From: Pedosphaera sp.
Lineage (GTDB): Bacteria; Verrucomicrobiota; Verrucomicrobiia; Limisphaerales; SIBH01
Direction: 5' to 3'
Length of the DNA stretch: 64,000 bases
Assembly (NCBI GenBank): GCA_031414955.1
Contig: JANOQV010000012.1
Location: 31,100 to 95,099 of the forward strand
This document shows, piece by piece, positions 20,654 through 38,000 of this stretch. Each line of letters opens with the position of its first letter. Position 1 is the stretch's first letter. The notes beneath the pieces are model-generated. The model made no database searches and had not been told where the DNA came from. It was given only the letters and a program-made list of their open reading frames with translations. The position numbers and the translations under genes were made by a program.

Positions 20654-21430
20654 ATGGCTGCAACCGTTATTCGCCCGCCCCCGGCCCCCGCCCTGGTGCG
20701 GGAGTTTTTCGCCGCGCTCGGCGAAGGCACGCCCTGGTTCCAGCTCTTCGACCATCTGCCGCGCGTTTACCTCTTCGTGAAGGATGCGCGCGGCCGCTTC
20801 ATGAAGGTGAACCGGGCCGAGCTTGATCTGCATGGCTGCCGGCAGGAGTCCGAGATGCTGGGCCGGACCGACTACGACTTCCATCCGCCGGCCATGGCCG
20901 CGCAATACGTGGAGGAGGATCAGCGCGTGATGAAGTCCCGCCGCCAGCTCCGGGACCAGGTCTGGCTGGTCATGGGCCATGACCGGATGCCGCGCTGGTA
21001 TTTAAGCACCAAGATTCCGCTCCTGGGCCGCGACGGGAAGCCCGTCGGCATCGCGGGTGTGATGCGACCCTACGACCACACCGGAGTCTCCCCGGCGGAT
21101 TACAATCGCCTCACGCCCGTCATGGAATACGTCCTGGCCCATTACGGCAAACGCATCGAGGTGGCCCAGCTCGCCGCGCGCGCCCACGTCTCGGTCAGCC
21201 AGTTGCAACGTGAATTCCAGAAACTCTTTGGCCTGACGCCCGGCGATTACCTCCTGAAGGTCCGCCTGCTCATGGCCCGGCGGCGGTTGGAGGAAGGAGA
21301 CGAGGCGGTCGGGGCCATCGCCCTCGACTGCGGCTTCTACGACCAAAGCCATTTCAACCGCGCCTTCCGCTCCCTGGTCGGCCTGCCGCCCAGTGATTAC
21401 CGGCGGAGGTTCCGGCGCACCAGCCGCTGA
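20654..21430 (+). CDS. AraC-family transcriptional regulator with an N-terminal PAS-like sensor domain
   Basis: C-terminal 'VSVSQLQREFQKLFGLTPGDYLLKVRL..A..L......IALDCGFYDQSHFNRAFRSLVGLPPSDYRR' is a canonical AraC HTH pair. The N-terminal 'VKDARGRFMKVNRAELDLHG' is PAS-like. Confidence 0.8.
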   Translation: MAATVIRPPPAPALVREFFAALGEGTPWFQLFDHLPRVYLFVKDARGRFMKVNRAELDLHGCRQESEMLGRTDYDFHPPAMAAQYVEEDQRVMKSRRQLRDQVWLVMGHDRMPRWYLSTKIPLLGRDGKPVGIAGVMRPYDHTGVSPADYNRLTPVMEYVLAHYGKRIEVAQLAARAHVSVSQLQREFQKLFGLTPGDYLLKVRLLMARRRLEEGDEAVGAIALDCGFYDQSHFNRAFRSLVGLPPSDYRRRFRRTSR

Positions 21431-21600: not shown

Positions 21601-22224
21601 TTAATCATTCTCCAGGCGGCGGACTTCCTTCTTGAGGCGGGTGGAGATTTTGTATTTCGCAAAATAAACCTGCGGCAATTTCGCGCCGAGGCGACGCGCC
21701 ACTTGCAAGGCCGGCATGTTCTTCACCACATGCAGGTAGAACATCTGAAACTCCCGGGCGTCGGCCTGCTCTTTGACGCGATCCAGCGCCGTGTCGAGCA
21801 GGTGGGTCCGCCATTCGTCCTCCCAGATCGCGTCCAGCGTCAGACCCGCATGGCCGGGCTGGGTTTCCAGCAGGGCGGTGCTGAGCGTCTCTTCGCGGGG
21901 CACTTGCTCGTCCCCCTGCTTGTAGCTCTTGCGGCGGAACGCGTCGATGATCCGGGACCGGGTGATTTGCAGCATCCAGCCTTTGAATGACCCGAGTTCC
22001 GGGTTGTAGCGAAACTCCGGCATGTGCCGCGAAATCGCCACGAAGGTTTCCTGGACAATGTCCTGCGCGGCGGCCTCGTTGAATCCCGCTTTTCGCGCCA
22101 CGCTAAAAATCAATTTCCAGTAGGTGTCGAAGAATTCGCGCCAGCTCTTGTCGTCCCCGAGATCCCGGAGCCGGAGCAGGAGCGTCTCGCGCGTCGGGAG
22201 CAGGTCTTCAGGTGGTGTGGTCAT
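21601..22224 (-). CDS. ECF-type RNA polymerase sigma-70 factor
   Basis: Region 2 is 'AQDIVQETFVAISRHMPEFRYNPELGSFKGWMLQITRSRIIDAFRRK'. Region 4 is 'MPALQVARRLGAKLPQVYFAKYKISTRLKKEV'. The start is at the Met 11 nt downstream of the kinase stop. No anti-sigma gene is adjacent. Confidence 0.85.
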   Translation of the reverse strand: MTTPPEDLLPTRETLLLRLRDLGDDKSWREFFDTYWKLIFSVARKAGFNEAAAQDIVQETFVAISRHMPEFRYNPELGSFKGWMLQITRSRIIDAFRRKSYKQGDEQVPREETLSTALLETQPGHAGLTLDAIWEDEWRTHLLDTALDRVKEQADAREFQMFYLHVVKNMPALQVARRLGAKLPQVYFAKYKISTRLKKEVRRLEND

Positions 22225-22235
22225 GGGAATTATTT

Positions 22236-24497
22236 TCAGGCGGGCGGTTCTGAGTCGAGCTGCTGTCGCAACTCGGCGAGACCGCGGCGCAAGTCCGCCG
22301 CGGTCTGGTGGCGTCTCGCGGGGTTGGCGTCGCACGCCTGGAGCACGATCCGGTTGAGTCCATACAGCACGTTGCCGCCGGGATTCGCGATCATGTCCGT
22401 GGGCAGTTCGGGGTAATGAGCCACCGCCAGTCCGAAACCGATCTCGTAGATGAGTTTGCCCAGGCTGTAGATGTCCGCCATCGGCGTGCCCGGCCCTTCT
22501 GGCGCGATGTAGCCCTTGGTGCCGAGGTAGGTGACGCTGGCGCCGCCCGTGGCGGCATCCGTGACCAGCCCGATGTCGGCAAACTTGGCGATGCCTTGCA
22601 CAAAAATGATGTTCGCCGGTTTGATGTCACGATGAATGAGCTTGTGCCTGTGCAGGTGATGCAGCGCATCGGCCAGGTGCATCGCGATGTCCAGGCACTC
22701 CGCCAAGGGGAGCCGCTGGCGCCGGCGCAATTCGCTCTTGAGCGTTTTTGCGGCGTAGGATTCGGGATTGATTTGCTGGCCCTGGGTTTCGTCGTCGCCC
22801 AGTTCCATCACGTAGTAGATGTAATCATCACGAACGCTGCGCCCGACGTGGAGGACGTGGACGAAACCGGGATGCGTTCGCGAAATTGGTGTGAAGCGGC
22901 TGATGCCCCGGAACTCCCGTTCGTACGGGCCCGCGTCCTGGAACACCTTCCGGTGAACGATCTTGACCGCGTGGTAGCTGCCGATGATGTCGCGCGCCAG
23001 CCACACTTCGCCATAAGCCCCCTTGCCGATGGGGCGCAGCATTTCGTGATCAGGGACGCTCGGCACCAGATCGTCCGGCTCGGGAAGAATCACCGTGCGC
23101 TCGGGCGCGACCCACGCCGCGCTGGCCGGAGCCAACGCTGGTCCGGCACTGCCCGGAGCTGGGGATCTTCCAGCCGGCGAATTCGCACCACCGCCCAAGG
23201 CGACTTCTTGTTCGAGCAGATTCATTTCCCGCTGCAATCGCCGCGTATGAATGACCACGGACCATCCGACCGCGCAGGGGATTTGCACGGCCGCGGGGAT
23301 CAGCCAGGGGAACCAGACCTGCGTGGTCAAAACGCTGATAATTCCGCCGACCGCGACGCAGCAGGCGAACACCATCCCGACCCAGACTGAGGTCAGCGGG
23401 CGCAAGGAGGTGAAATAAATTCCCACGATCGCTCCGAACAACATCACCAAGGGCAGCTCGACGAAGGGAGACAGCCGCGAGAGCGATTCGCCGCGCGCCA
23501 GGTTCAGATACGCTGTGGCGTTGACCTCGACTCCGGGCGCCTTGCGGCCGGTCCACAAGGTGTGCGGAATGCGGAAATCGTCGGTGCCCTTTCCGCCCGT
23601 AAAACCAACGCTCCACAAGGCGCCGACGAACACGACCTTGTTCGAAAAAGCCGCCACCACGTCGAAATCTTTCTCGAACACGTCCGCGTACGACTTGTGC
23701 GGCAGGTAGCCGGGCGGACCATAAAAGTTGACCCAGTGCCGCGCGAAGGGATCGCCGTCCAATTTTCCATGCGCCAGTTCCGCCGCGCGCCAGGCGAGGC
23801 TGGGGATTTGGAACACCGTGTCGCGATAATGTTCGCGCACGGCTTTGCTCGCGTCGCTGGCCTCGCTCATTCCCCAGGCGCTCACGGCGGCGAGTTCGTC
23901 GAAGGGCTTGATGATCTCGGAGCCGATGATTTCGCCGGCATGGACCCGGAAACCGTTGATGGCCGCCACCACGACTTTGCCATTCTCCCGCGCGGCCGCG
24001 GCGAGTTCGCGATTGGCCACCAGGTTGGTGTCTGCGCCGAACACCACGTCGAACACCACGGCCTTCGCTCCCGCCCCGGTGAGCCTCCGAATCAGCCGCG
24101 CATGCACCGTCCGATCCCATCTGTCCCATCGGCCCTGGCCCAGCGCCGCTTCGGAATGCTCGTCCATGTAGAGCACCACCACTTCATTCACCGGGACGGT
24201 CGCGCGAAAATAAAAAGGCAGGTCATAGCTGTAATTCGCCGGCCCTTGCAGGAAAGGAAGCGTGAGAAAGCACAGGCCGAGCAGGGCGGGAAAGGCGGCG
24301 GCGGTGGCCGGGGCGAGCCACTTGCGTCCGGCCCGGGAATCAAACATGCGCTGGAGCTGTGGTGATGAACCCTGGGGCCGGTCCGCCCCGGCGGGCTGGC
24401 CCGGTCGTTCCTTCTGAATGGGGCTTTGCAGGTTCACAATCGCGCGGCTGTCGATGAGCCGGATACGTCCGCAGTTTGAACCGCGGTCCCGGCGCAA
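22236..24497 (-). CDS. CHASE2 sensor-domain transmembrane Ser/Thr protein kinase
   Basis: N-terminal TM segment, then a periplasmic CHASE2-like region ('VVVLYMDE..', 'VVFDVVF', 'KVVFVGA') and a cluster of TM helices. The Hanks kinase carries 'GKGAYGEVWLA', 'HAVKIV', 'HRDIKPANIIF', 'DIGLV', 'GTKGYIAPE'. An alternative start is the Met at 24347. Confidence 0.85.
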   Translation of the reverse strand: MRRDRGSNCGRIRLIDSRAIVNLQSPIQKERPGQPAGADRPQGSSPQLQRMFDSRAGRKWLAPATAAAFPALLGLCFLTLPFLQGPANYSYDLPFYFRATVPVNEVVVLYMDEHSEAALGQGRWDRWDRTVHARLIRRLTGAGAKAVVFDVVFGADTNLVANRELAAAARENGKVVVAAINGFRVHAGEIIGSEIIKPFDELAAVSAWGMSEASDASKAVREHYRDTVFQIPSLAWRAAELAHGKLDGDPFARHWVNFYGPPGYLPHKSYADVFEKDFDVVAAFSNKVVFVGALWSVGFTGGKGTDDFRIPHTLWTGRKAPGVEVNATAYLNLARGESLSRLSPFVELPLVMLFGAIVGIYFTSLRPLTSVWVGMVFACCVAVGGIISVLTTQVWFPWLIPAAVQIPCAVGWSVVIHTRRLQREMNLLEQEVALGGGANSPAGRSPAPGSAGPALAPASAAWVAPERTVILPEPDDLVPSVPDHEMLRPIGKGAYGEVWLARDIIGSYHAVKIVHRKVFQDAGPYEREFRGISRFTPISRTHPGFVHVLHVGRSVRDDYIYYVMELGDDETQGQQINPESYAAKTLKSELRRRQRLPLAECLDIAMHLADALHHLHRHKLIHRDIKPANIIFVQGIAKFADIGLVTDAATGGASVTYLGTKGYIAPEGPGTPMADIYSLGKLIYEIGFGLAVAHYPELPTDMIANPGGNVLYGLNRIVLQACDANPARRHQTAADLRRGLAELRQQLDSEPPA

Positions 24498-24507
24498 ACG
24501 AGCCTCA

Positions 24508-27500
24508 TCAAAAATTAAATTTCAGCCGGGCCACGTAAGTTCTTTCGCGCGGCAGTTCCGCCGTCAGGTTCAACGGACTCAGCCGGTAGTCTTCGCCCGT
24601 CAGGTTCAGCACGCCGACCCGGACTTCAAAGCGTCGCTGAAATCCGCGCCATCCGGCATACAGATTGAACTGCCAGAACTCGTCGTCGGTCCCCGCCCCC
24701 GCTCCGCCGTTGATCTGACCGTTCCAAAGCGCCTCCGCCTGGGAGAAAAAGCCGGAGCGGTGATTGAAAATCGCGAAGAGATTCACCTGGTGCAACAAGG
24801 CGTCGCTCTTTGTGCGCGAATGAAAATCCAGGGCGGTCAGTGCGTTCCCGGGGATGTCTCTGAAGTGACTTTCCAGCTCGGCGTAGCTGACGCGGTAACG
24901 CACCCCGAGCGACCAGTCATCCGCGACGAGCTGGTTGAGGGTCAGCGCCACGGTCCGCTCCTGGTAATCCAGACGCTGGCGCGTCGAGGATCGTGCGACT
25001 TGGAATGACGGCAGAAAATCATAGACCCCGAAGTCCCGCTCGAGCTCCGATCGCAGCCATTCGCCGGACAGCCCGACATACGTGCCCTTCCCGAACCGCT
25101 GCTCGATCGACGCACCCCAGTTCTCGAAACTGGCCGCCGAGTTCGCGCCCGCAATCGACTCGGGAATAATGCTGCGAAACGCCTGGTTGAAGCCGGCCAC
25201 CTGCGTCGGCTCCAGACGAAAGCTCTGGTCGAAGCCGACCCCGCCGAGGGATTGCGAGTAGGCCGCGCGCAGCGTCGTGCGATCCGTCGGCGTCCAAATC
25301 AAACCGCCCTTGGGAGAAATTTGATCCGTCTCGTCTTCGCCCGCCCCGAGCGGCGCGTAACGAAAGTTCACCGGATAACGCAGCCAGTCATAACTCACTC
25401 CGGCCACCAGCAGGAGCGGCGTCACGGGACGCCAGTGGTAGTACCCGTAGCCGCTCGCACGCTCCATCTGCGAATCAACACTTTCGCGCCCGGTCGGAAA
25501 CAGCGCCGAGACAAAACCCGGAATAGGCGGAGGGACTTGCGCATTCATCTGCTCGCTGCGCGTCTCGAACTGCCCGGCCTGGTACCGGCCACCGACAATG
25601 AAGGCGTGATTCTCAGTCTGCCAAAGCTGCTGCAACTCGGCCGTGAACAGCCCAAGGTCGGTGGCATACTTCTGCTCGATCAGGATCGGCACCGCGTCCG
25701 TCACCTTGCCGCCTGAGTCCTTGCCCAGCAGCAGGGTTTGTTGCTGGCCGTTCTTGACCATCATCTCGTCCTGCAACCAGCCGACGAGGGCCAGGGTGTG
25801 AACGCCGGGCGCCCACTTGTGTTGCCAGCCCGCCAGCAACAACGGCTCCTGCCGCTCCTCTACGCGCAAGGTGCGGTTGGCCGAGGCCGGATCCTGCCGG
25901 GTCAGCAGATCGCCGCCTTCGATTTCACTGCGCACCGCGTGGAAGTAAAGGCTGTCTTCGGGCGTGATCTGGTACTTGAGCTGCAAGGACAGTTCATTCT
26001 GCTCCAGGTCGTTGCTGGCGCGCTGGCCCTGGTCGGAATTGTAGAACGCGGACACCGCGTAGCTGAAATTTTCGACGCTTCCGTATTGCGCGCCGGACTG
26101 CCACCACGCGCCGCGACTGTAGTATTCCGTGCTCGAGGAAACGCCCAGTCCGTCGCGCTCGAAGAGCTTTGAGTATTCGTTCTGGGTGACCGACTGCGCG
26201 AGGGTGCCCGCGCCGATCGGCGCGAGCAGGTTGGCCAGCAGGTATTCGGTCACGGCGGCCGTCTCGAACCGCTGGCTGATGCGCGCGGGATCGCGCCGGC
26301 GCTCATACGTCTCCGCGAGAAACAGGTGCGTCGAGTAATTCGCGGGATCAGCTTCCACGGCCCGGCCCGCTTCGCGCGCACTCACCTCCAACATGCCGGC
26401 ATCATCGTATAAGCCGGCCAGGTTCACGGCCTGCACGGCCAGATCCTGATCCAGCGTCAGGCGCGGGCGAAAGACCCGCCGGTTCTCGTTCAATTCACGC
26501 GCGTGTTCCAGATCCCGCACGCCTTCGTTGATTCGGTTCACGTCCCGGTTCAGCAGGGCCGAGTAAAGCCACGCCGTCGGGTCGTTGGGATCGAGGCTCT
26601 GCGCGAGATGCAGTTCTTTGCGCGCGCGCAGGACATCACGTTCGTTGCTGAAGGCTTTGCCCAGGTAGCTGCGAAAAATCGCGCGCTGCGGTTCGACCGT
26701 TGCCGCCACTTGCAAATCCTCCCGGCCACCCGCGAGATCACCGCGACGGATACGGCACAGGCCGCGTCCCAGCCAGGCGTTCCCCATCGCGCTGTTGAGC
26801 ACGATGGCTTCGTCGAAGGCCGCGATGGCTTCCCGGGTGCGATTGTCCGCGGCGAACAGAAATCCCCGGAGCGCGACGGCGTGGGCGTTGCGCGGCGCCA
26901 GGGATAAACTTTTCTCCACGGCCTCGCGCGCTGGCGTCGTTCGCCCGAAACTGAATTCCAATTCGGCCACCCGCGCCCAGGCAAAACTGAAACCGGGCGA
27001 CACCCCGGTGGCACGCCGCGCGAATTCCAGCGCCTCCTTCAGTTCGCCGCGCGACTGCGCGAAATACGATTCCGCGAGCAGCTTTGTGGCGGTCCCGGCT
27101 GCGCCTTGCTCCCTCTCCTGGGGGAGAGGGCCGGGGTGAGGGCGCAATTGAATCGCGGCCATGACCGTGCGCAGCGCCCGCGCTATCGACGCCGCTGGGC
27201 TGTTCACATCGGGAATCGTATTGAGAGCAGCCTGCGCCAGCCCGACCTCGCCGACCGCGAGGTCCAGCGCGGCCAGATAAACTTTCTCCGCATCCGAGGC
27301 GGGCTGACGGTTCGCCGGATAATTCGTCACCGCCGCGATCAAGTCGCCGCTGCGATACGCCGCCAGCGACGCCTCCAACGCCTGCGCCTCCGCTGGCGTG
27401 AGCGGCAGCTCCTCCAAATCCAAAACGCCGGGGTAATACAGCACCCATTGAATCACGTTCACCGCTTCGAGAGCGGGCACCTTGACTGGAGCAGAGTTCA

Positions 27501-28317
27501 CTTGCGCCGTGGCCGCTTCGCCATTCGTCAGCGTGAGCGGCGGCCCAAACTGATTCGTCATCACGAGGCTGCCGTCGATCAGCGTCACCCGCGTGGCGTC
27601 ATTGTCATCCACCTCGATCACGAATTCCGTGCCGAGAATGGCCGCGTAGGCGGAAGGTGTCTGCACCGGCAACGTGCCCGGCTCGTCGCGGTGAAAGTAG
27701 TAGAGCAGGCCGCGCAGCAACTGGACGCCGCCGCCCTTCTCCTCGGGAATGCGAACGAAGCTCAGCGGACCGAGGCGCAGCGTGCTGTGATCGGAGAGTT
27801 GCACCACGGCGCGGCTGCGTTCCATCGTGCGCAGACTGTCCCCGGGGAACAGCACCTGATTGGTGTAGCCCGGATCCCGGGCCGGGGAGTTGCCGCGCGA
27901 GACGAATATTTTCCCTTCAAAGCCCAGCAGCACCGCCTCCGTTTTCTGCGCCGCGCCCGCCGTGGTTCCGATCCCGCCCAGGACGATGGCCCACAGCGCC
28001 AGCGCGAAGCCAATGTAACGCCGCGTTATTCTCCCTCTCCCCTCACCGGGGAGAGGGCCGGGGTGAGGGGTGAGAATGGCAGTGGGCGGTGGTTGGCAAA
28101 CGACAGTGCTCGGACGATCCCACCCCTCACCCTCAATCCCTCTCCCCGTTGAGGAGAGAGGGAAGCCCGCCACGGACGCGCTCTTCATGGAAAGAGAGCC
28201 ATCCTCCTGAGTGTGCGGCAAGCTGCGCCGGCTTTCGCCGCGAGCCTCCCCAGCCGCGCCAACACTTCTGCTCCGCTGTTTCGAGGAAGGTTCAAGTTCA
28301 CATTTCATGCGTGTCAT
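24508..28317 (-). CDS. FecR-domain + TPR-repeat + C-terminal outer-membrane beta-barrel protein
   Basis: Hydrophobic segment 'YIGFALALWAIVLGGIGTTAGAAQ'. FecR-like block 'KIFVSRGNSPARDPGYTNQVLFPGDSLRT..AVVQLSDHSTLRLGPLSFVRI'. TPR-like helices run to about aa 700. A Gly/Tyr/aromatic-rich strand pattern follows, ending '...TYVARLKFNF'. The N-terminal ~95 aa are repeat-derived, so the true start is uncertain. Confidence 0.7.
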   Translation of the reverse strand: MTRMKCELEPSSKQRSRSVGAAGEARGESRRSLPHTQEDGSLSMKSASVAGFPLSSTGRGIEGEGWDRPSTVVCQPPPTAILTPHPGPLPGEGRGRITRRYIGFALALWAIVLGGIGTTAGAAQKTEAVLLGFEGKIFVSRGNSPARDPGYTNQVLFPGDSLRTMERSRAVVQLSDHSTLRLGPLSFVRIPEEKGGGVQLLRGLLYYFHRDEPGTLPVQTPSAYAAILGTEFVIEVDDNDATRVTLIDGSLVMTNQFGPPLTLTNGEAATAQVNSAPVKVPALEAVNVIQWVLYYPGVLDLEELPLTPAEAQALEASLAAYRSGDLIAAVTNYPANRQPASDAEKVYLAALDLAVGEVGLAQAALNTIPDVNSPAASIARALRTVMAAIQLRPHPGPLPQEREQGAAGTATKLLAESYFAQSRGELKEALEFARRATGVSPGFSFAWARVAELEFSFGRTTPAREAVEKSLSLAPRNAHAVALRGFLFAADNRTREAIAAFDEAIVLNSAMGNAWLGRGLCRIRRGDLAGGREDLQVAATVEPQRAIFRSYLGKAFSNERDVLRARKELHLAQSLDPNDPTAWLYSALLNRDVNRINEGVRDLEHARELNENRRVFRPRLTLDQDLAVQAVNLAGLYDDAGMLEVSAREAGRAVEADPANYSTHLFLAETYERRRDPARISQRFETAAVTEYLLANLLAPIGAGTLAQSVTQNEYSKLFERDGLGVSSSTEYYSRGAWWQSGAQYGSVENFSYAVSAFYNSDQGQRASNDLEQNELSLQLKYQITPEDSLYFHAVRSEIEGGDLLTRQDPASANRTLRVEERQEPLLLAGWQHKWAPGVHTLALVGWLQDEMMVKNGQQQTLLLGKDSGGKVTDAVPILIEQKYATDLGLFTAELQQLWQTENHAFIVGGRYQAGQFETRSEQMNAQVPPPIPGFVSALFPTGRESVDSQMERASGYGYYHWRPVTPLLLVAGVSYDWLRYPVNFRYAPLGAGEDETDQISPKGGLIWTPTDRTTLRAAYSQSLGGVGFDQSFRLEPTQVAGFNQAFRSIIPESIAGANSAASFENWGASIEQRFGKGTYVGLSGEWLRSELERDFGVYDFLPSFQVARSSTRQRLDYQERTVALTLNQLVADDWSLGVRYRVSYAELESHFRDIPGNALTALDFHSRTKSDALLHQVNLFAIFNHRSGFFSQAEALWNGQINGGAGAGTDDEFWQFNLYAGWRGFQRRFEVRVGVLNLTGEDYRLSPLNLTAELPRERTYVARLKFNF
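27109..27145. repeat. 'CTCTCC..GGAGAG-GGCCGGGGTGAGG' hairpin repeat in frame inside the TPR region of the FecR-barrel gene
   Basis: CTCCCTCTCC-TGG-GGGAGAGGGCCGGGGTGAGGGCGC. Encodes ...RPHPGPLPQEREQGA... The same family occurs at 28031-28164. Confidence 0.75.
28031..28164. repeat. Composite palindromic repeat (two inverted copies of the 'GGGAGAGGGCCGGGGTGAGGGG' family) within the 5' end of the FecR-barrel ORF
   Basis: CTCCCTCTCCCCTCACCGGGGAGAGGGCCGGGGTGAGGGGTGAG ... CCCACCCCTCACCCTCAATCCCTCTCCCCGTTGAGGAGAGAGGGAAG. Encodes ...GIEGEGWDRP...TPHPGPLPGEGRGRI... upstream of the only hydrophobic segment. Confidence 0.8.
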
Positions 28318-28326
28318 CTCGCCAGG

Positions 28327-28354
28327 GATACGTATGGGACCCGTCGAGTTTTAA
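28327..28354 (-). promoter_or_regulatory. Weaker copy of the same bipartite motif facing the FecR-barrel/kinase/sigma operon: TTAAAA-N16-CGTATC
   Basis: The minus strand reads GAAAGATTAAAAC-TCGACGGGTCCCATA-CGTATCCC. It has one mismatch in the -35-like hexamer and the same 16-nt spacing. It lies only ~10 nt from the first ATG of the ORF, so it would imply a downstream start. Confidence 0.25.
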
Positions 28355-28372: not shown

Positions 28373-28408
28373 AAGATTTTTTCAAAAAGGCCCGGCCGGT
28401 TGCGTGTT
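28373..28408 (+). promoter_or_regulatory. Candidate ECF-type promoter, distal copy upstream of RCC1 paralogue 1: AAGATTTTTTCAAA-N16-CGTGTT
   Basis: TTCAAA at 28381-28386, an exactly 16-nt spacer, CGTGTT at 28403-28408. One of five co-oriented copies of the same bipartite motif. Confidence 0.4.
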
Positions 28409-28440
28409 CATGCCAGTGCAGGCAGCCGCGCAAATTGTTT

Positions 28441-28700
28441 TCAGCCGCTCTGGTCCACCGCCGAGACGGGAAGAGCGCAGAGGTTTTCCGGCCGGGATCT
28501 CTGTACTGCAATCCATCCGAATCCTCGTGCGCCGCGAGGATTTCTGCCCGCCTGATCCACCGCCGAGGCGGGAAGGGCGCAGAGACAGCGCGTTCGGAAA
28601 GCTCTGCCCCCTTCCCGCCTCTGCGGTGGATCAGCCCGTTCCCTTTGGTTGCGGCTCCGCCGCGCTGTGTCCTTCCCGTCTCTGTGGTGCCACCGGGTGG
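28441..28700. repeat. Cluster of four ~35-nt GC-rich repeats (family 'CTCTGCGCCCTTCCCGCCTCGGCGGTGGATCAG'), two forming a long hairpin
   Basis: GATCCACCGCCGAGGCGGGAAGGGCGCAGAG (about 28552-28582) and CTCTGCCCCCTTCCCGCCTCTGCGGTGGATC (about 28600-28630) are inverted. Further copies lie near 28450 and 28665, and at 34845-34935 upstream of paralogue 2. Confidence 0.75.
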
Positions 28701-28745
28701 ATCGTTTGGTTGCGGCTTGGCCGCTCCGTGTCCAGCCGTGGTTAA

Positions 28746-28781
28746 AAGATATTTTCAAAAAGGCCCGGCCCGTTGCGTATT
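28746..28781 (+). promoter_or_regulatory. Candidate ECF-type promoter, proximal copy upstream of RCC1 paralogue 1: AAGATATTTTCAAA-N16-CGTATT
   Basis: TTCAAA at 28754-28759, 16-nt spacer, CGTATT at 28776-28781. About 110 nt upstream of the ATG at 28892. Confidence 0.45.
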
Positions 28782-28891: not shown

Positions 28892-31800
28892 ATGAAATTT
28901 TGCTTCACAGTTTGCGGTGATCCAAGGCGGCGGTGGCGTGGCCCTGCGGCCCTGCGGCGGTGGCGGCTTCTTCTGCTGCTGGGGTCCGCGCTCCTCCTCC
29001 TGTGCGCCTGGCTCGGAATGGGCACCGCTTATGCCGCTACTCCCGGCGCGGTGCTGGGGTGGGGAATCTCCTCCCAAAGTTACATGCCCCTCGCGACGCA
29101 GAGTGGGGTGGTGGCCGTTGCGGCGGGACAGTATCGCGCGGTGGCCTTGAAGACCGACGGGAGCTTGCTGGCGTGGACACCCTTCGCCTACGAGGTAACG
29201 ACCGTGCCCGTGGAGGCGCAGAGCGGGGTGATGGCCATTGCAGCGGGAGGGGATAACATCGTGGCCTTGAAGACCAACGGGAGCGTGCTGGAGTGGCTGG
29301 TGTGGGGAGACAACTGGTCCGTCCAAACGGTGCCCGTGGAGGCGCAGAGCGGGGTGACGGCCATTGCAGCGGGAAGCTTTCACGCCGCGGCCTTGAAGAC
29401 CAACGGGAGCGTGGTGGCGTGGGGATCCACCGTCCACGGCCAAACGACGGTACCGGTCACGGCGCAGAGCGGAGTGATAGCGATTGCAGCGGGAGGTTCT
29501 CACACCGTGGCCTTGAAGTATGACGGGAGCGTGGTGGCGTGGGGTTATAACGCCTACGGCCAAACCAATGTGCCCGTGGCCGCGCAAAGCGGGGTGGCGG
29601 CCATTGCGGCGGGAAAATATCACACCGTAGCCTTGAAGTATGACGGGAGCGTGGTGGCGTGGGGAGACAACGGCTTCGGCCAAACGACGGTGCCCGCGGC
29701 GGCGCAGAGTGGAGTGATGGCCATTGCAGCCGGATACGGACACACCGTGGCCTTGAAGACCAACGGGAGCGTGCTGGCGTGGGGAGACAACTGGGCCGGC
29801 CAAACGACGGTGCCCGTGGCGGCGCAGAGTGGAGTGACGGCGATCGCGGCGGGAGAGGGACATACCGTGGCGCTCGTCATCCCGACTCCCCCCACCATCA
29901 CCACTCAACCCGTGAGCCTGACGGTGAACGCGGGGCAGAGCGCGAGCTTCACCGTGGTGGCCACGGGTTTTCCCTTGAACTACCAATGGTTCAAGGACGG
30001 AACCAATCTCAACGGGGTAACGAGCCACGGCCACGGCTTGGACCACGCATCGTTCAATGACGCGGGAAGCTACACCGTGGTGGTGACCAACTCTGTCGGG
30101 AGCGTGACGAGCGCGCCACCGGCGGTGCTGACGGTGAACGCGGCGCTTCCCGGCGCGGTGGTGGAGTGGGGAGTCAACTTCTCGGGCCAAGTGAATGTGC
30201 CTGTGGCGGCGCAGAGCGGGGTGACCGCCATTGCGGCGGGAGAGTATCACACGGTGGCCTTGAAGACCGACGGGAGCGTGCTGGCGTGGGGACAAAACGA
30301 CGTTGGCCAAACGACCATTCCCGTTGAGGCCCAGAGCGGGGTGATGGCCATCGCCGCGGGAGAGATACATACCGTGGCGCTGAAGAATGACGGAAGCGTG
30401 GTGGCGTGGGGAGACAACGCGGAAGACCAAACGACCGTGCCCCTGGCGGCCCAGAGTGGAGTGACGGCCATTGCGGCGGGAGCATATCACACCGTGGCCT
30501 TAAAGAACGACGGAAGCGTGGTGGCCTGGGGATACGCCGGCATCGTAACGACGGTGCCCGTGATGGCGCAGAGCGGGGTGACGGCCATCGCGGCGGGAGG
30601 CTATCACACCGTCGCCTTGAAGAATGACGGAAGCGTGGTGGCGTGGGGAGACAACTGGGCTGGCCAAACGATCGTGCCCGTTGCAGCGCAGAGCGGGGTG
30701 ATGGCCGTTGCGGCAGGAAACTCCCACACCGTGGCCTTGAAGACTGACGGGAGCGTGCTGGCGTGGGGAGACGGCTCTTACGGCCAAATGAATGTGCCTG
30801 TGCCGGCACAAAGCGGAGTGACGGCCATTGCGGCGGGATATGGCCACACCGTGGCCTTGAAGAACGACGGGAGCGTGATGGTCTGGGGCCGCAACGACTA
30901 CGGCCAAGCAACGGTGCCCGTGGCGGCGCAGAGCAGAGTGACGGCCATTGCGGCGAGAGGTGGTCACACCGTGGCGCTGCTCGGAGATGGGAGGCCGGTG
31001 GTGACCGTGCCACCGGTGGAACAAACCGCGCTCCTCGGTAACACCTTCCGCCTGGCGGCCATGGTCGTGGGCAACGGGCCGTTGTTTTATCAGTGGCGCT
31101 TCAACGGAGTGGACATCGCCGGAGCGACCAATGCCCTGCTCGAACTTCTCAACGTGCAAACCAATCAGGCGGGTGGTTACACGTTCGTCGTGACCAATGC
31201 CCTCGGCGCGGTAACGGGCGCGGTGGCGCAAGTGACAGTTCTCGTTCCGGCGCACGTTGATCCCTTGCCGCCGAGCACCACGGTGTTGCTTGGCTCCAAC
31301 GTGACGCTGTCTGCGAATGCGGAGGGCACGCCGCCGCTGCGGTATCAGTGGCGCAAGAACGGGGCGAACATTCCGGGAGCCACGAACAGCAACTACACCA
31401 TCACCAACGTCCAGGTCAGCGATGGCGGCGCGTACACGGTGGTGGTGCAGAACGATTACGGCACAGCCACCAGCGACCCGACGCTGCTCATCGTCCAAGT
31501 GCCGCCCCAGGCTCCGGGCGATAATTTCGCCAACCGAGTCGCGATCATCGGCACCAACGGGGTGGTCGGGGGCACGAACCGTTTCGCGACCAAGGAAGCG
31601 GGCGAACCCAACCACGGCGGCAAGGCGGGCAGCAATTCAGTCTGGTACACCTGGCAGGCGCCGAGCAACGGCATCGCCACCTTCCGCACCCAGGGCAGCG
31701 TGTTCGACACCCTGCTCGGCGTTTACACCGGCGGCACCGTTTCCAATCTCACGACGGTCGCCAGCGACGAAGATCTCGGCGGCTTCTTCACCAGCGAAGT

Positions 31801-33100
31801 GCAGTTCAACGCCGTGGCCGGAACCGACTACCAGATCGCCGTCGATGGCTTCGCCGGGGGACAGGGCGAGTTCATCCTGGGCTGGGATCTGGAGATCACC
31901 AGCGACACCCTGCCCGTGATCACCACCCAACCACTTAGCCGGGCCGTGTTGATCGATTCAGACGTGACGTTCAACGTGTCTGCTACGGGAACCGGCCTGA
32001 CCTACCAATGGTTCTTCAACGGCTCCGCCCTCTCCGGCGCAACCAACACCGCCCTCACCCGCAGCAGCGTGCAAGCGGCGGATGTCGGCTACTACACCGT
32101 GCGCGTGCGCAACAGCGTGGGACGTGAAGTGGACAGTCTGGCCGCAGCCTTGGAACTGGTGAGCGAGCTGCGGCCACTCTCCCAGGATAAGTTCGAGGAT
32201 CTACTGTCGCCGCCGGTCCCGGATCGTTACCCGCCCAAGGGCGGCTCCTCGTTCACCGTGTCGCTGGGGACGATCGATTATCAGATCGTGAGCAACGTGC
32301 GTTCGACGACCGATCTGGGCGAGCCGACCCCGTGCGACGTGATCGGCGGGGCCAGCCAGTGGATCACCCTGCGCGGGACGAGCAATGGGGTGTTCCGCAT
32401 CGACACCATCGGCAGCGCCATCAACACGGTGCTGACGGTCTATCGCTCGACCAACCTACTTTACCTCCACACGGCGCAAGTGGCCTGCGACGACAATGGC
32501 GCGCCGGACGGTGTGCGCAGCCTGCTCTGGTTCAATGCCACCGCCAACACCGATTACCTGGTGGTGGTGGACGGCGTGAACTCCGCGCGCGGCACCATCC
32601 ACATCAACTGGGCCTTCGGCCTGCCGCCCTCAGCAGCAACCAACAGCCTGCCGCCGCGCCACGCTTTTCTGCCCGGCCAGAGCCTGACGCTGCGCTCACC
32701 GGCGACCAACGGCCTTCCCCCGCCGCGTTTCCAGTGGCTTTGGAACGGCAGCCCGATCGTCGGTGCGACCAATGCGCTGCTCACCCTGACCAACCTGCAA
32801 TCGGCCCAGGTCGGTTTCTACACTGTGGTAGTCAGCAATGCCCTGGGCATACTGACCTACGCGACCGACCTCAGCCTGGAGGTGCCCACCTTCCAGGCCG
32901 AACTCACGCTGACCAACAAGACGCTGCGCCTCTGGCTGCCCACTACGACTAATCAAATCACCATCGTGGAAACTTCCACCAACCTCCTGAACTGGACGCC
33001 GGTGTACTTTTACGCGCCGCCCCAGAACAACTACTTCGACCTCTCCATCACCAACGCCGCCCAGCAGTTCTTCCGCACGCGTTCGATCACCGGGCCGTAA
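28892..33100 (+). CDS. Giant secreted RCC1-repeat (two 7-bladed propellers) / Ig-like / PPC-like multidomain surface protein, paralogue 1
   Basis: Signal segment 'RLLLLLGSALLLLCAWLGMGTAYA'. There are 14 blades of ~39 aa, 'GQTTVPVAAQSGV.AIAAG..HTVALK.DGSV.AWG.N'. Ig-like modules carry 'YQW..NG..I.GATN..L.L.NVQ...G.Y..VV.N..G'. Two modules carry 'GEP.H...SVWY.W.AP..G...F.T.GS.FDT.L.VY.G'. A C-terminal ~70-aa tail ends 'QQFFRTRSITGP'. Confidence 0.85.
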   Translation: MKFCFTVCGDPRRRWRGPAALRRWRLLLLLGSALLLLCAWLGMGTAYAATPGAVLGWGISSQSYMPLATQSGVVAVAAGQYRAVALKTDGSLLAWTPFAYEVTTVPVEAQSGVMAIAAGGDNIVALKTNGSVLEWLVWGDNWSVQTVPVEAQSGVTAIAAGSFHAAALKTNGSVVAWGSTVHGQTTVPVTAQSGVIAIAAGGSHTVALKYDGSVVAWGYNAYGQTNVPVAAQSGVAAIAAGKYHTVALKYDGSVVAWGDNGFGQTTVPAAAQSGVMAIAAGYGHTVALKTNGSVLAWGDNWAGQTTVPVAAQSGVTAIAAGEGHTVALVIPTPPTITTQPVSLTVNAGQSASFTVVATGFPLNYQWFKDGTNLNGVTSHGHGLDHASFNDAGSYTVVVTNSVGSVTSAPPAVLTVNAALPGAVVEWGVNFSGQVNVPVAAQSGVTAIAAGEYHTVALKTDGSVLAWGQNDVGQTTIPVEAQSGVMAIAAGEIHTVALKNDGSVVAWGDNAEDQTTVPLAAQSGVTAIAAGAYHTVALKNDGSVVAWGYAGIVTTVPVMAQSGVTAIAAGGYHTVALKNDGSVVAWGDNWAGQTIVPVAAQSGVMAVAAGNSHTVALKTDGSVLAWGDGSYGQMNVPVPAQSGVTAIAAGYGHTVALKNDGSVMVWGRNDYGQATVPVAAQSRVTAIAARGGHTVALLGDGRPVVTVPPVEQTALLGNTFRLAAMVVGNGPLFYQWRFNGVDIAGATNALLELLNVQTNQAGGYTFVVTNALGAVTGAVAQVTVLVPAHVDPLPPSTTVLLGSNVTLSANAEGTPPLRYQWRKNGANIPGATNSNYTITNVQVSDGGAYTVVVQNDYGTATSDPTLLIVQVPPQAPGDNFANRVAIIGTNGVVGGTNRFATKEAGEPNHGGKAGSNSVWYTWQAPSNGIATFRTQGSVFDTLLGVYTGGTVSNLTTVASDEDLGGFFTSEVQFNAVAGTDYQIAVDGFAGGQGEFILGWDLEITSDTLPVITTQPLSRAVLIDSDVTFNVSATGTGLTYQWFFNGSALSGATNTALTRSSVQAADVGYYTVRVRNSVGREVDSLAAALELVSELRPLSQDKFEDLLSPPVPDRYPPKGGSSFTVSLGTIDYQIVSNVRSTTDLGEPTPCDVIGGASQWITLRGTSNGVFRIDTIGSAINTVLTVYRSTNLLYLHTAQVACDDNGAPDGVRSLLWFNATANTDYLVVVDGVNSARGTIHINWAFGLPPSAATNSLPPRHAFLPGQSLTLRSPATNGLPPPRFQWLWNGSPIVGATNALLTLTNLQSAQVGFYTVVVSNALGILTYATDLSLEVPTFQAELTLTNKTLRLWLPTTTNQITIVETSTNLLNWTPVYFYAPPQNNYFDLSITNAAQQFFRTRSITGP

Positions 33101-34772: not shown

Positions 34773-34808
34773 AAGATTTTTTCAAAAAGGCCCGGCCCGT
34801 TGCGTGTT
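34773..34808 (+). promoter_or_regulatory. Candidate ECF-type promoter, distal copy upstream of RCC1 paralogue 2
   Basis: TTCAAA at 34781-34786, 16-nt spacer, CGTGTT at 34803-34808. The surrounding ~125 nt are almost identical to 28372-28495. Confidence 0.4.
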
Positions 34809-34943
34809 CATGCCAGTGCAGGCAGCCGCGCAAATTGTTTTCAGCCGCTCTGGTCCACCGCAGAGACGGGAAGAGCGCAGAGGTTTTCCGGCCGGCGATC
34901 TCGGTGTCCTTCTCGTCTCTGCGGTGCCAGAACGCGCCCGGCG

Positions 34944-34979
34944 AAGATTTTTTCAAAAAGGCCCGGCCCGTTGCGTATT
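34944..34979 (+). promoter_or_regulatory. Candidate ECF-type promoter, proximal copy upstream of RCC1 paralogue 2
   Basis: TTCAAA at 34952-34957, 16-nt spacer, CGTATT at 34974-34979. About 105 nt upstream of the ATG at 35084. Confidence 0.45.
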
Positions 34980-35083: not shown

Positions 35084-38000
35084 ATGATTTTTTATATCAC
35101 AGTTTGTGGTGATCCGAGGCGGCGGTGGCTGTTAACCCTGCTGCTTTTGTGCGCTGCGCTCCCTGGCCCGGCGACGCACGGCGCGGGTTCCTTGCTGTCG
35201 TGGGGTTTGAACAACGCCGGCCAGACCAATGTGCCGGCGGGCCTGACCAATGTTGTGGCCGTGGCGGCGGGCCAGAACCACAGCCTGGCCTTGAGGGACG
35301 ACGGCACCGTGGTGGCGTGGGGCAGCAATGCCACCGGCCAGACCAACCTTCCTCCGGGGCTGGATGGAGTGAGCGCCATGGCCTCCGGACTCTTCCACAA
35401 CCTCGCCGTGCGCGCCGATGGCACTGTCGTGGCGTGGGGCCAGAACATCTATGGCCAGACCAATGTCCCGGCCGGGCTGCAAAATGTCGTCGCGGTGGCG
35501 GCTGGCACCCGACATAGCCTGGCCTTGCGGGCGGATGGCACCGTCGCCGGCTGGGGCACGAATGAGGACGGCCAGATCACCATCCCGCCCAACCTCACCA
35601 ACGCCCTGGCCATCGCCGCCGGGGCTTATCACAGCCTGGCGCTCCGCCGCGACGGCACCGTCGTGGCCTGGGGCCGGACGAACTACTTGCAGACGGCGGT
35701 CCCGGCCTCGGCCACGAACATCCTCGCCCTCGCCGCCGGCGGAGATCACTCCCTCGCCCTGCGCGCGGACGGCCAGGTGATCGCCTGGGGTTACAGCGTC
35801 TCCGGCCTGACCAACGTGCCGGTCGATCTCACCAATGCCGTGGGCGTTGCGGCGGGATACTATTTCAACAGCGCCCTGCGCGCGGATGGCCGAGTGGTGG
35901 CCTGGGGTGCCAACAACTCCGGCCAGACCAACGTGCCGCCGGGCATGACGAACGTGGTAGCGCTGGCCGCGGGTTACGGTCACGCCTTGGCTCTGCGCGA
36001 TTCAGATTTTGTCGTGTCCTCTGCGCCAAGGATTCTAACCCAGCCGCACGCACGGACCATCTACAGCGGCACTACCGTCACGCTGGACGTGCTCGCCATC
36101 GCTCCCGATCCAATCGCCTATCAGTGGCAATTCGGGGAGACGAATCTGGCCGGGGCGACGAATGCGTCGCTCGTTTTGGAGAACGTGCAGTTCGCGCAGG
36201 CGGGACTGTATCGTGTGGTGGTCAGCAGCAGCGGTGGAGTTGCTGTGAGCATCGACTCCTTGCTTTCGGTGGTTGGCGCCGGCCCGATCATCGTCAGCGG
36301 ACCATCGAATGTGGTGACGCTTGCTGGTTCGACTGCGGAGTTCCACGTCACTGCGGACGGATCAGAACCCTTCAGCTACCAATGGCAGTTCAATGGTGCG
36401 GACATCAGTGGGGCCACCAGCAGCAGTTTGTTTCTCTCGAATATCCAACTGGCTGACCAGGGCGGGTACCGCTGCGTCGTCAGCAACGCCTTCGGCGTCA
36501 TCACCAGTTCGGCGGCGATCTTGATCGCACCGGCGCTCGTCATCGCGTCGCAGCCTCAAAGCCAGACTGTCTTGGCGCTGGCCAGCGTCACCTTCAGCAT
36601 CGTCGCCGTTGGCTCTGGCCCCTTCACCTACCAGTGGCGGAGATCCGGCATCAGCCTGACGGAGGGCGGCTGGATTCTGGGGGCGCAGACGGCCACGCTG
36701 ACCTTGTCCAATGTTCTGCCCGCCGACGCGGGCAGTTACTCGGTGACGGTGCATAATGCCTTTGGCACCGCGTCCAGTTCCAACGCTTGGTTGGCGGTGG
36801 TGCCACTGGTGGCTTGGGGCACCAATTCATTCGGGCAAACCAGCATTCCACTGAGTCTCACCAACGTGACGGCGGTGGCTGCGGGCGCCTATCATAATCT
36901 GGGGCTGAAGGCAGACGGGACAGTAGTCGCTTGGGGGCAGAACTCTTCCGGTCAGATCAATGTTCCACCGAGCTTATCCAATGTGGAGGCCGTCGCGGCA
37001 GGAGTCGCTTGGAGCCTGGCTCTGCGCGGCAATGGAACGGTGATGGCGTGGGGATCTGGTATTCAGACCAATGCTCCGTCCGCGCTGTCGAACGTGATCG
37101 CGATCGCGGCTGGCGGCTTTCATGGTCTGGCCTTGAAACAGAACGGCACCGTGGTGGCCTGGGGCCAGAACACCGAGGGCCAGACCAATGTGCCTCCCGG
37201 CCTGTCGAACGTGATTGCGATTGCGGCCGGACAATCCCATAGCCTGGCCTTGAAGGCGGACGGTCGGGTCGTCGCCTGGGGCTGGAACACCTGGGGCCAG
37301 ACGAACGTGCCGCCGGGGCTTTCAAACGTGGTCGCGATTGCAGCGGGCATGTTCTACAGCCTGGCCTTGAAAGACAACGGGACCGTGGCGGCCTGGGGTT
37401 CCAACTCCCTTCCCAGCGGATTAAGCAACGTCGTGGCCATCGCGGCAGGTGCGGCAGGTGCGCCCGATCACGGTCTCGCACTCACGGACGACGACACGTT
37501 GCTACGGTGGGGAAACACTTGCTGTGGCCTGACGAACATTCCGTCTGGCCTGACCGGCATCGCCGCTGTCGCGGCGGGTGCCAACCATGACCTGGCTCTC
37601 GTGTTTGGCTCATTGGCCGTGAACCCGATAACTCCTGGTGCCGTGGTGGCCTGGGGAAACAACAACTACGGCCAAACGACGGTGCCCGTGGCAGCGCAGA
37701 GCGGAGTGGTGGCCATTGCGGCGGGAGGTTCTGAATACGGTGGTCACACCGTGGCCTTGAAGACCGACGGCAGCGTGGTGGCGTGGGGAGAAAACGACTA
37801 CGGCCAGACGACGGTGCCCGTGGCGGCGCAGAGCGGAGTGACGGCCATTGCGGCGGGAGCTGGTCACACTGTGGCCTTGAAGAACGACGGGAGCGTGCTG
37901 GCGTGGGGACGCAACTTCGAAGGCCAAACGAACGTGCCCGTGGCGGCACAGAGCGGAGTGACGGCCATTGCGGCGGGACGTGTTTATACCGTGGCCCTAA

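Follow-up and report, generated by a model that had tools for sequence, protein, structure and literature searches.

How can a cue at the bacterial surface reach RNA polymerase when the genes at hand encode an outer-membrane protein, a receptor kinase and a sigma factor of the extracytoplasmic function (ECF) type, with no anti-sigma factor gene among them? This question is raised by a stretch of 64,000 nucleotides (nt), hereafter the window, from contig JANOQV010000012.1 of Pedosphaera sp. (assembly GCA_031414955.1, positions 31,100-95,099). A preliminary description had recognised here three minus-strand genes, namely gene 1 for a protein combining a FecR-like domain, tetratricopeptide repeats (TPR) and a C-terminal outer-membrane barrel, gene 2 for a CHASE2 Ser/Thr kinase and gene 3 for an ECF sigma factor, and had proposed a relay running through them in this order. 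The open reading frame (ORF) listing bears out all three in the same direction, at 24508-28317, 22236-24497 and 21601-22335, with maximal sizes of 1269, 753 (from a TTG start) and 244 amino acids (aa), respectively; profile searches against Pfam and NCBIfam likewise recover the FecR and TPR domains of gene 1, the CHASE2 and Hanks kinase domains of gene 2 and the ECF sigma factor of gene 3. The three-gene arrangement is beyond chance and recurs in many independent genomes, and it consists of two separable modules, barrel plus CHASE2 on the one hand and kinase plus sigma on the other, which are joined in the window.

Gene 1 (24508..28188, minus strand) is taken to start at M44 of its maximal ORF, where the NCBI-source product also begins (coordinate 28188); the start must lie downstream of 28317 since the conserved promoter and 5' untranslated region, which the maximal ORF overlaps, occupy 28250-28353. 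By Pfam, its product matches FecR at residues 161-250 (E 8.6e-11), TPR families at 423-587 and TonB_dep_Rec_b-barrel (PF00593) at 736-1027 (E 4e-9), with no Plug or STN match at E <= 0.01. The single hydrophobic N-terminal segment noticed earlier is present and reads as a predicted cleavable-type signal peptide, the hydrophobic core of which, as read from the sequence, spans 27946..28014 (minus strand; residues 102-124 of the maximal ORF) and ends at TTAGAA/Q. Homologues carry classical short signal peptides and begin about 5-30 residues ahead of the equivalent hydrophobic segment (e.g. MLTRRARLGLMPWVVVAAAFATTALGAQK), their alignments starting at about residue 100-125 of the maximal ORF, and the N-terminal extension in the window is a repeat insertion that is not conserved.

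Regarding the fold, the AlphaFold2 model of the mature protein (1145 aa), computed from an alignment of 50 sequences, reached a mean predicted local distance difference test score (pLDDT) of 87 and a predicted template modelling score (pTM) of 0.83. It comprises an all-beta part at residues 1-156, i.e. the putative periplasmic FecR-type domain (27478..27945, minus strand; Pfam FecR at 27568-27837), an all-helical TPR solenoid at residues 184-575 (26221..27396, minus strand; TPR also by Pfam) and 22 beta strands at residues 600-1145 (24511..26148, minus strand), with pLDDT mostly above 90 in the barrel region. The top 50 matches of a Foldseek search against the PDB are all TonB-dependent transporters, among them OprC, FhuE, FecA and FpvA (E ~1e-13, target-normalised TM-score (TMt) ~0.5), and the C-terminus ends in LKFNF as previously pointed out, the family consensus being 'LxFNF'. 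The C-terminal region is thus modelled as a 22-strand barrel of the TonB-dependent-transporter type, in agreement with the barrel first suspected from the strand pattern, and this barrel would be plugless because no Plug domain is found and the TPR region is followed by the first barrel strand after only ~25 residues. A true TonB-dependent transporter was considered and rejected for lack of a plug by Pfam; neither the N-terminal plug (PF07715) with a TonB box nor the STN domain that marks such transporters or transducers is present in gene 1.

The gene 1 family is large. A protein search returned 799 database proteins at E <= 1e-5 among 8000 candidates scored, and the 120 matches listed all have E = 0 and 48-100% identity, nearly all covering at least 88% of the query. 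At least 566 stretches match gene 1 when one representative genome per species is scanned, and several genomes hold two copies of a gene of this type. Most of the best 80 loci are labelled Verrucomicrobiota, chiefly Pedosphaera or Limisphaerales-type genomes from metagenomes, with a minority carrying other labels (Bifidobacteriaceae, Haliangiales, Acidobacteriaceae). As a side observation on gene 1 itself, a hairpin-forming repeat (CACCCCGGCCCTCTCCC..GG(A/T)GAGGG) occurs twice in the window (0.04 expected), at 28039-28068 and 27112-27141, both times in frame within the gene, where it encodes PHPGPLPGEG and PHPGPLPQER. One copy stands directly before the signal peptide, at a place from which the ancestral ATG seems to have been lost (R-I-T-R-R in the window, M-L-T-R-R in a relative), and the other falls in a loop of the TPR region modelled with low confidence; the same element is found upstream of the barrel gene in another locus (L094, about 2030-2170).

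A search of plasmids with gene 1 by tblastn led to the megaplasmid pSymB of Sinorhizobium meliloti, which encodes a 1190-aa 'FecR domain-containing protein' with the same FecR/TPR/barrel layout and a weak OMP barrel match. An adenylate cyclase gene follows immediately downstream, and other S. meliloti records (CP140934.1) label this locus 'nsrA | cyaK'. BLASTP aligns gene 1 and NsrA at 24% identity over the N-terminal 490 aa (E 5e-20), with additional collinear barrel fragments, and hhalign extends the alignment over 997 columns, from 29-1150 to 28-1171 (probability 99.6%, E 7.7e-25). Judged from these alignments, gene 1 is homologous to S. meliloti NsrA over its full length and is a member of the NsrA family. 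NsrA is a predicted outer-membrane barrel protein that the CHASE2 cyclase CyaK needs for the perception of a plant signal (PMC7529298; PMC13001267), its barrel being described as residues 600-1200 (PMC7529298; PMC13001267; PMC10463352). With gene 1 belonging to the NsrA family, the step from an outer-membrane barrel/TPR/FecR protein to a CHASE2 receptor therefore has an experimental precedent.

The likeness of the two systems covers the signal peptide, the FecR domain, the TPR and the C-terminal barrel, in proteins of ~1150-1200 residues that align end to end, as well as the genetic context, since nsrA and gene 1 both lie immediately upstream of a gene for a CHASE2-family receptor and the cyclase version is present in many loci related to that of the window. 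Of CyaK it must be said that its ORF gives no CHASE2 match by Pfam at E 0.01, the CHASE2 assignment being that of the literature. The systems differ in that the CHASE2 receptor of the window ends in a Hanks kinase, not in a cyclase, and that the effector is a co-transcribed ECF sigma instead of cyclic AMP and Clr; besides, identity between gene 1 and NsrA is only ~22-24%, and the window belongs to Verrucomicrobiota whereas NsrA is alphaproteobacterial. In the NsrA-CyaK system (with CyaD1/D2), the signal of NsrA is a uL2-type protein. Just upstream of nsrA, on pSymB, also lies a DUF5706-annotated gene (L087, 5148-5693) that matches the Pfam family PycTM (Pycsar effector) with E 9e-12 and adjoins a cyclase-linked signalling locus.

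Gene 2 (22236..24497, minus strand), assigned from Pfam, NCBIfam and its hydrophobic segments, matches CHASE2 at residues 75-360 (E 2.3e-28) and Pkinase at 486-689 in Pfam. CHASE2 is a widespread sensor domain whose input has been described as unknown (PMC5192318). With hydrophobic segments at 60-83, 345-365, 368-392 and 394-416, the predicted topology is that of a first transmembrane segment (60-83), a periplasmic CHASE2 domain (~84-344), three further transmembrane segments (345-416) and a cytoplasmic Hanks kinase (486-746), which is the usual layout of CHASE2 receptors, i.e. one transmembrane segment, periplasmic CHASE2, three transmembrane segments and a cytoplasmic output. The kinase motifs GKGAYGEVW, HRDIKPANI and DIGLV quoted in the preliminary description are there, together with AVK and APE. 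Across the kinase family, the glycine-rich loop and HRD are conserved, and D[ILMV]G takes the place of DFG (DIG in the window); the kinase is likely active, as far as these motifs tell. The ~10-nt gap reported between genes 1 and 2 only holds with a TTG start at 24497. With the alternative ATG at 24347, which is the choice of the gene caller, the protein has 703 aa and the gap after gene 1 is 160 nt. A start upstream of 24347 is favoured because a relative of 82% identity (L092) has Leu in place of this Met yet conserves the peptide ahead of it.

How firmly these genes belong together was examined in a survey of 83 loci, that is, 82 related loci (cited here as L followed by a number) and the window, in which all ORFs were translated and searched with the domains of the three proteins of the window and with cyclase and histidine-kinase queries. 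A CHASE2 gene was found in 51 of the 63 loci having at least 3 kb downstream of the barrel gene, most often within 0-300 nt. Receptors with a Ser/Thr kinase output are the most frequent (32 loci), followed by those ending in an adenylate/guanylate cyclase (17) and in a PAS-HisKA-HATPase-receiver hybrid histidine kinase (2); ten examples were checked by Pfam. The nearest relative of a barrel protein shares its partner class in 54 of 59 cases, and single genomes hold both kinase-type and cyclase-type barrel-CHASE2 pairs, hence a long-standing and specific pairing of barrel and CHASE2 receptor. Functional coupling of gene 1 and gene 2 is accordingly held to be very probable.

The sigma factor follows the kinase output. 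Taking E < 1e-20 as the criterion for a sigma orthologue, one is present in 23 of the 32 kinase-type loci versus none of the 19 cyclase or histidine-kinase loci; among well-flanked loci, the figures are 20 of 27 versus none of nine (Fisher p = 1.2e-4). In five of the nine kinase-type loci lacking such an orthologue, the kinase gene is immediately followed by one for a sigma-like protein of a second and more divergent kind (~250 aa, with a weak Sigma70_r2 match), so that 28 of the 32 kinase-type loci have a sigma-like neighbour once both families are counted. This second family (L003, 13813-14565; L010, 15745-16503; L014; L040; L068; L059, with two copies) has a region 2.2 of the type ..SHRAQDLTQEF and may be another kinase-linked ECF-like group; in L059 it lies beside kinases without a detected CHASE2 domain. 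The two modules are separable because the kinase-sigma pair also occurs without the barrel, as in L088, where the CHASE2-kinase and sigma genes overlap by 4 nt and no barrel gene is found, or without CHASE2, as in L093, where the sigma gene is followed by a kinase lacking this domain. Coupling of kinase and sigma is considered probable, with good confidence.

Two layouts prevail. In the first, barrel, kinase and sigma genes follow one another on the same strand, as in the window, L005, L089, L092, L094 and L095, three of which (L089, L094 and L095) were reached from sigma homologues and show the same order; the three genes are hence conserved as neighbours, in line with what had been anticipated. 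In the second, the sigma and barrel genes point away from each other, and barrel and kinase are often separated by an Ig-domain gene. This interval holds, in the divergent-sigma loci, a small opposite-strand gene (~240-270 aa), the secreted product of which combines a single Ig_3 domain with a C-terminal part that is Cys-rich and conserved (e.g. L012, 14053-14769; L026, 9151-9954; L044, 13811-14605; L046, 10911-11723; and others).

Gene 3 (21601..22224, minus strand) starts at ATG 22224 and encodes 207 aa, a length matched end to end by 115 homologues of ~207-210 aa; with this start, the gap between the kinase stop and the sigma start is ~11-12 nt, so that the second of the two ~10-nt gaps of the preliminary description stands nearly as given. 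From Pfam (Sigma70_r2), NCBIfam (TIGR02937, sigma70-ECF, residues 65-237, 69.8 bits against a cut-off of 42.9), the homologue alignment and the alignment with its PDB matches, SigE and SigH, the product is classified as an ECF sigma, i.e. a group 4 sigma-70 factor of ~200 aa with sigma2 and sigma4 only. The preliminary description had pointed to kinase-linked sigmas of the ECF43 type as a precedent. Sigmas of ECF43 are recognised by QTTA or STTA, with the phosphorylated Thr, in place of the acidic DAED in region 2.2 (PMC13147305; PMC8999054). At the positions equivalent to DAED of Mycobacterium tuberculosis SigE, the window encodes A52-A53-Q54-D55 (22060..22071, minus strand) and the family has [E/A]AQD, with no Ser or Thr at these positions in the 115 homologues: position 52 is E in 57 and A in 55, position 54 is Q in 107 and D55 is invariant, and an acidic residue is found at position 50 in 111. 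ECF43 membership was hence rejected, region 2.2 lacking the ECF43 Thr, and the phospho-acceptor expected in region 2 is absent. The acidic patch is weakened in the alignment, because the position of the ECF43 phospho-Thr is occupied by an uncharged Q.

Another residue deserves attention. T116 (codon at 21877..21879, minus strand) lies in the sigma2-sigma4 linker, in the motif RE[EQ]xLxT[SAT]LLE; of the 115 homologues, 87 have T and 8 have S at this position. In EcfK of Xanthomonas, the linker residue T106 is phosphorylated, and phosphorylation of T51 or T106 is required for function (PMC13147305). T116 is thus proposed as the best phospho-site candidate of the gene 3 sigma, since it is conserved in the linker and EcfK is phosphorylated at its own linker Thr. 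Regarding the place of this family among known groups, the kinase-linked ECF groups of the 2021 classification are the proteobacterial ECF43 and ECF267, the actinobacterial ECF283 and the planctomycetal ECF59, ECF61, ECF62 and ECF217 (PMC7826278, bioRxiv supplement); CHASE2 is not mentioned in that bioRxiv supplement, and no paper treating CHASE2, ECF and kinase as one unit was found in the literature searched.

Taken together, the following relay may be proposed. Gene 1 would be exported via its signal peptide and insert its plugless 22-strand barrel in the outer membrane, loops outward, with the TPR and FecR-type domains hanging in the periplasm. Through this TPR/FecR part, a surface cue would reach the CHASE2 domain of gene 2 in the periplasm and so activate the cytoplasmic Hanks kinase, which in turn would activate the co-transcribed ECF sigma, most likely by direct phosphorylation with Thr116 as the best site candidate, and with no anti-sigma factor involved. 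The active sigma would then transcribe its own operon from TAAAAC-N15-CGTAT and probably also the neighbouring giant secreted RCC1/Ig-repeat genes. The order of the relay, as first suggested, fits the comparative data because barrel and CHASE2 co-occur at any output and the sigma occurs only at the kinase output. The relay as a whole is rated somewhat more probable than its failure; for direct phosphorylation as the activating step, the scales are level.

In place of direct phosphorylation, the kinase could act on another protein, such as an unlinked anti-sigma factor, an anti-anti-sigma factor or a response-type regulator, or the sigma could be controlled only via transcription of its operon. 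Consistent with this, region 2.2 keeps acidic residues and is without the ECF43 Thr, kinase-linked ECF groups besides ECF43 may work differently (PMC8999054), and an ECF-like promoter upstream of the operon would permit a purely transcriptional amplification. The tight adjacency of kinase and sigma genes, with overlaps or gaps of 4-12 nt, is however kept when barrel or CHASE2 is missing, and the sigma never accompanies cyclase or histidine-kinase outputs in the surveyed loci. Moreover, adjacent Hanks kinases are known to phosphorylate ECF sigmas directly (PMC13147305; PMC8999054), and no conserved anti-sigma-like ORF exists at +1 or -1 of the sigma gene. The early remark that no anti-sigma gene is present, the next gene being convergent, likewise holds, with no conserved small ORF after the sigma gene in ~30 loci searched for an anti-sigma candidate. 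An indirect target of the kinase is thus judged unlikely.

The gene 1 protein could also be a transport or export device. Exopolysaccharide exporters are likewise built from TPR and a C-terminal outer-membrane barrel, so that an exporter of the BcsC/PgaA/PelB type comes to mind, as does a plugless importer derived from a TonB-dependent transporter; such a device might serve the giant RCC1/Ig proteins or a polymer, the CHASE2 kinase merely monitoring the state of the envelope. Partial NCBIfam matches of gene 1 to the TPR lipoproteins PrsT, PilW and Tgl, the frequent neighbourhood of giant secreted Ig-repeat genes and the possibility that a plugless 22-strand barrel forms a wide channel all speak for it. 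On the other side, no glycosyltransferase or polymer-synthesis gene was seen in the loci inspected, 9 of the 17 cyclase-type pairs are without Ig neighbours, the partner that stays invariant is a CHASE2 receptor, whatever its output class, and the homologue NsrA is genetically a component of signal perception (PMC7529298). A role in transport is consequently regarded as improbable. Finally, the presence of a FecR domain and TPR beside an ECF sigma recalls the ECF267 situation (PMC7826278, bioRxiv supplement), but gene 1 as a FecR-type anti-sigma factor of the adjacent sigma was rejected and is given next to no credence, as its homologues show a short signal peptide and no cytoplasmic N-terminal anti-sigma domain before FecR (the extension in the window being the non-conserved insertion), the same family pairs with CHASE2 cyclases and histidine kinases where the sigma is absent, and the sigma occurs with its kinase where the barrel gene is missing; the FecR domain is not part of an anti-sigma factor and the protein is fully exported.

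The relay through barrel, CHASE2 kinase and sigma can be set against established systems. With FecA-FecR-FecI it shares an outer-membrane 22-strand barrel, a periplasmic FecR-type domain and an ECF sigma for conveying a surface signal to transcription, FecA itself being among the Foldseek matches of the gene 1 barrel. It differs in that the gene 1 barrel has no plug, N-terminal signalling domain or TonB box, that the FecR domain is fused to the outer-membrane protein instead of forming the periplasmic part of an inner-membrane anti-sigma factor, and that the inner-membrane step is a CHASE2 kinase without any anti-sigma factor. With the ECF43 systems, namely EcfP-PknT of Vibrio parahaemolyticus and EcfK-PknS of Xanthomonas citri, it shares an ECF sigma adjoining a transmembrane Hanks kinase, the lack of an anti-sigma factor and, in T116 of gene 3, a conserved linker Thr parallel to T106 of EcfK (PMC13147305). 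The differences lie in region 2.2 (AAQD, not QTTA/STTA), in the Pfam model matched (Sigma70_r2, not the Sigma70_ECF model reported for ECF43), in the kinase protein, which in gene 2 has an N-terminal CHASE2 domain and four transmembrane segments whereas the ECF43 partner has an N-terminal kinase, one transmembrane segment and periplasmic TPR, and in the dedicated outer-membrane partner of the window.

Other arrangements come close in part. In ECF267 of Sorangium and Chondromyces, a FecR+TPR protein and protein kinases are encoded near an ECF sigma (PMC7826278), the authors being unsure whether the FecR+TPR protein or the kinases regulate the sigma (PMC7826278, bioRxiv supplement). As described, however, that group has a 'FecR-like anti-sigma' with one transmembrane segment at +1 and kinases at non-conserved positions, the description mentions no barrel or CHASE2, and its 28 proteins are all proteobacterial. 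In the 'BiofilmReg' locus of Burkholderia, a LysM-FecR protein stands beside a CHASE2 histidine kinase (PMC5192318), with LysM as accessory domain, a histidine-kinase output and no sigma. In Campylobacterota, a cluster gathers a CHASE2 cyclase, a FecR-domain outer-membrane protein, a TPR protein and a phosphodiesterase (PMC9239204), FecR and TPR thus being on separate proteins, with a cyclase output and again no sigma. The outer-membrane-to-CHASE2 half is hence already known from NsrA-CyaK and from the gene clusters of Campylobacterota and Burkholderia, and the kinase-to-ECF half from ECF43.

Regarding the output of the system, the intergenic region upstream of gene 1 was aligned with that of L092, which has the same layout including the divergent giant RCC1/Ig gene, and a block near gene 1 proved almost identical. 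Across the five loci with the gene order of the window, this block reduces to TTAAAA[AC]-N15-CG[TA]AT, with conserved boxes and variable spacers; we take the form TAAAA[AC]-N15-CG[TA]AT to resemble ECF promoters of the 'AAC-N16-CGT' type. In the 64-kb window, TAAAAM-N15-16-CGWAT has a single match (0.03 expected), the candidate ECF-type promoter TAAAAC-N15-CGTAT of the gene 1-kinase-sigma operon at 28328..28353 (minus strand), which the gene 3 sigma presumably recognises. Outside the loci of derivation, the motif precedes the sigma genes of L093 (by 16 nt), L041 and L007 (where the sigma is transcribed separately), the CHASE2-kinase-sigma pair in L088 and, with a spacer of 13-14 nt, the barrel gene in L095; for the non-derivation loci, 4 matches in the target windows compare with 0.6 expected (p = 0.005).

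The relaxed pattern AAAAM-N13-16-CGTAT gives three matches in the window versus 0.18 expected, a number reached in none of 100 shuffles. The second promoter-like site, AAAAA-N14-CGTAT at 28757..28780 (plus strand), lies 112 nt before ATG 28892 of the divergent gene for a 1402-aa secreted protein with RCC1 repeats and five Ig_3 domains by Pfam (28892..33100, plus strand), which is a candidate regulon member; in L092, the boxes of this site are conserved and the spacer is changed. The third copy, at 34955..34978 (plus strand), lies ~107 nt before ATG 35085 of a paralogous giant RCC1/Ig gene. The divergent RCC1/Ig arrangement is also found in L092 and L095, and equivalent promoter-like sites face Ig giants in L092, L095 and L007. 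Ig-repeat ORFs occur within 10 kb in 27 of the 32 kinase-type loci and in 10 of the 19 cyclase or histidine-kinase loci, and this latter share makes Ig adjacency alone weak evidence. Whether the sigma would regulate its own operon together with a regulon including the RCC1/Ig surface proteins, with the promoter so assigned, is evenly poised.

Several features of the surrounding DNA can be recorded beside these sites. Three giant secreted Ig_3/RCC1-repeat proteins are encoded within the 64 kb (28892-33100, 35085-41716 and 51795-56369), the first two being paralogues with near-identical 5' regions and N-termini (MKFCFTVCGDPRRRW vs MIFYITVCGDPRRRW). A composite repeat at 28373-28781 and 34773-34979 consists of two 36-nt direct repeats (AAGATTTTTTCAAAAAGGCCCGGCCCGTTGCGT..) bracketing palindromic units of 25-33 nt of the type CACCGCCGAGGCGGGAAGGGCGCAGAG; in the gene 1/Ig-gene intergenic region, it corresponds to a 373-bp insertion relative to L092 that duplicates part of the native promoter region. 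In this alignment, one copy of AAGATTTTTTCAAAAAGGCCCGGCCCGTTGCGT is native promoter sequence and the insertion is flanked by its duplication. The 36-nt repeat, with its four copies in the window, was considered as a conserved regulatory motif and rejected, a search for its core finding genome-specific copies only, and the enrichment of k-mer pairs upstream of barrel genes was discarded as confounded by the coding sequence of the divergent sigma gene. The divergent-sigma loci have a different conserved promoter of the sigma gene, of sigma-70 type (TTGCCAA-N17-CATTACT; L012, L018, L022-L028, L034-L039, L043-L053, L065, L067, L073), which ends ~7 nt before the ATG and therefore suggests a leaderless, possibly constitutive transcript. 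On the other side of the operon, the convergent neighbour of the sigma gene encodes a regulator of PAS_4 and AraC type by Pfam (20654-21430, plus strand), which is present in the same species (L090) and probably unrelated to the relay, being absent from L092.

A number of points weigh against the relay as drawn and the regulon attached to it. On the genomic side, 12 of the 63 barrel loci have no CHASE2 gene within 10 kb and 9 of the 32 kinase-type loci have no sigma of the first family. The sigma itself keeps D55, the acidic position 50 and, in half of the family, E52, and so is not obviously crippled for core binding as ECF43 sigmas are; phosphorylation may then be unnecessary or act differently. 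The Ser or Thr common in the family at position 49 is N in the window, and the choice of T116 is a guess from conservation. As for the step across the periplasm, a physical contact between the FecR/TPR part and CHASE2 is something we infer. Besides, the promoter motif was derived from five of the loci where it is reported and was not found in L094 or in the divergent-sigma loci, the sites at 28757 and 34955 are copies of one duplication and thus not independent, and Ig-repeat genes are abundant, their link to the system being weak apart from the promoter-like sites.

What then does this locus bring? The finding is a recombination of known modules, drawn from comparative genomics only. The preliminary description had named no earlier account of the relay as a unit: this stands for the combination, which was not found in the literature searched, and does not for the outer-membrane-to-CHASE2 step, known from NsrA-CyaK. 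Within that literature, three aspects appear to be undescribed, namely that a single operon fuses both halves, that the NsrA-CHASE2 pair exchanges its outputs within one phylum and that a kinase-linked ECF family lacks the ECF43 signature. A bolder reading, in which a distinct class of surface signalling, apparently widespread in Verrucomicrobiota, would unite a plugless NsrA-type barrel possibly sensing a macromolecule, interchangeable CHASE2 receptors driven by the periplasmic TPR/FecR arm of that barrel protein, an ECF sigma switched on in the kinase version by phosphorylation at the linker residue T116, not in region 2.2, without anti-sigma factor, and autoregulation together with RCC1/Ig induction, is offered tentatively, its truth being rather doubtful for the present. 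With the NsrA-type partner remaining constant as the CHASE2 output is swapped between kinase, cyclase and histidine kinase, the survey suggests that the input of CHASE2 is often a partner protein, i.e. an outer-membrane sensor of the NsrA type, not a small ligand. For the bacteria concerned, the route from the cell surface to RNA polymerase would thus be wired differently from FecA-FecR-FecI, and kinase-linked ECF regulation would be extended to Verrucomicrobiota and to a sigma family devoid of the ECF43 signature.

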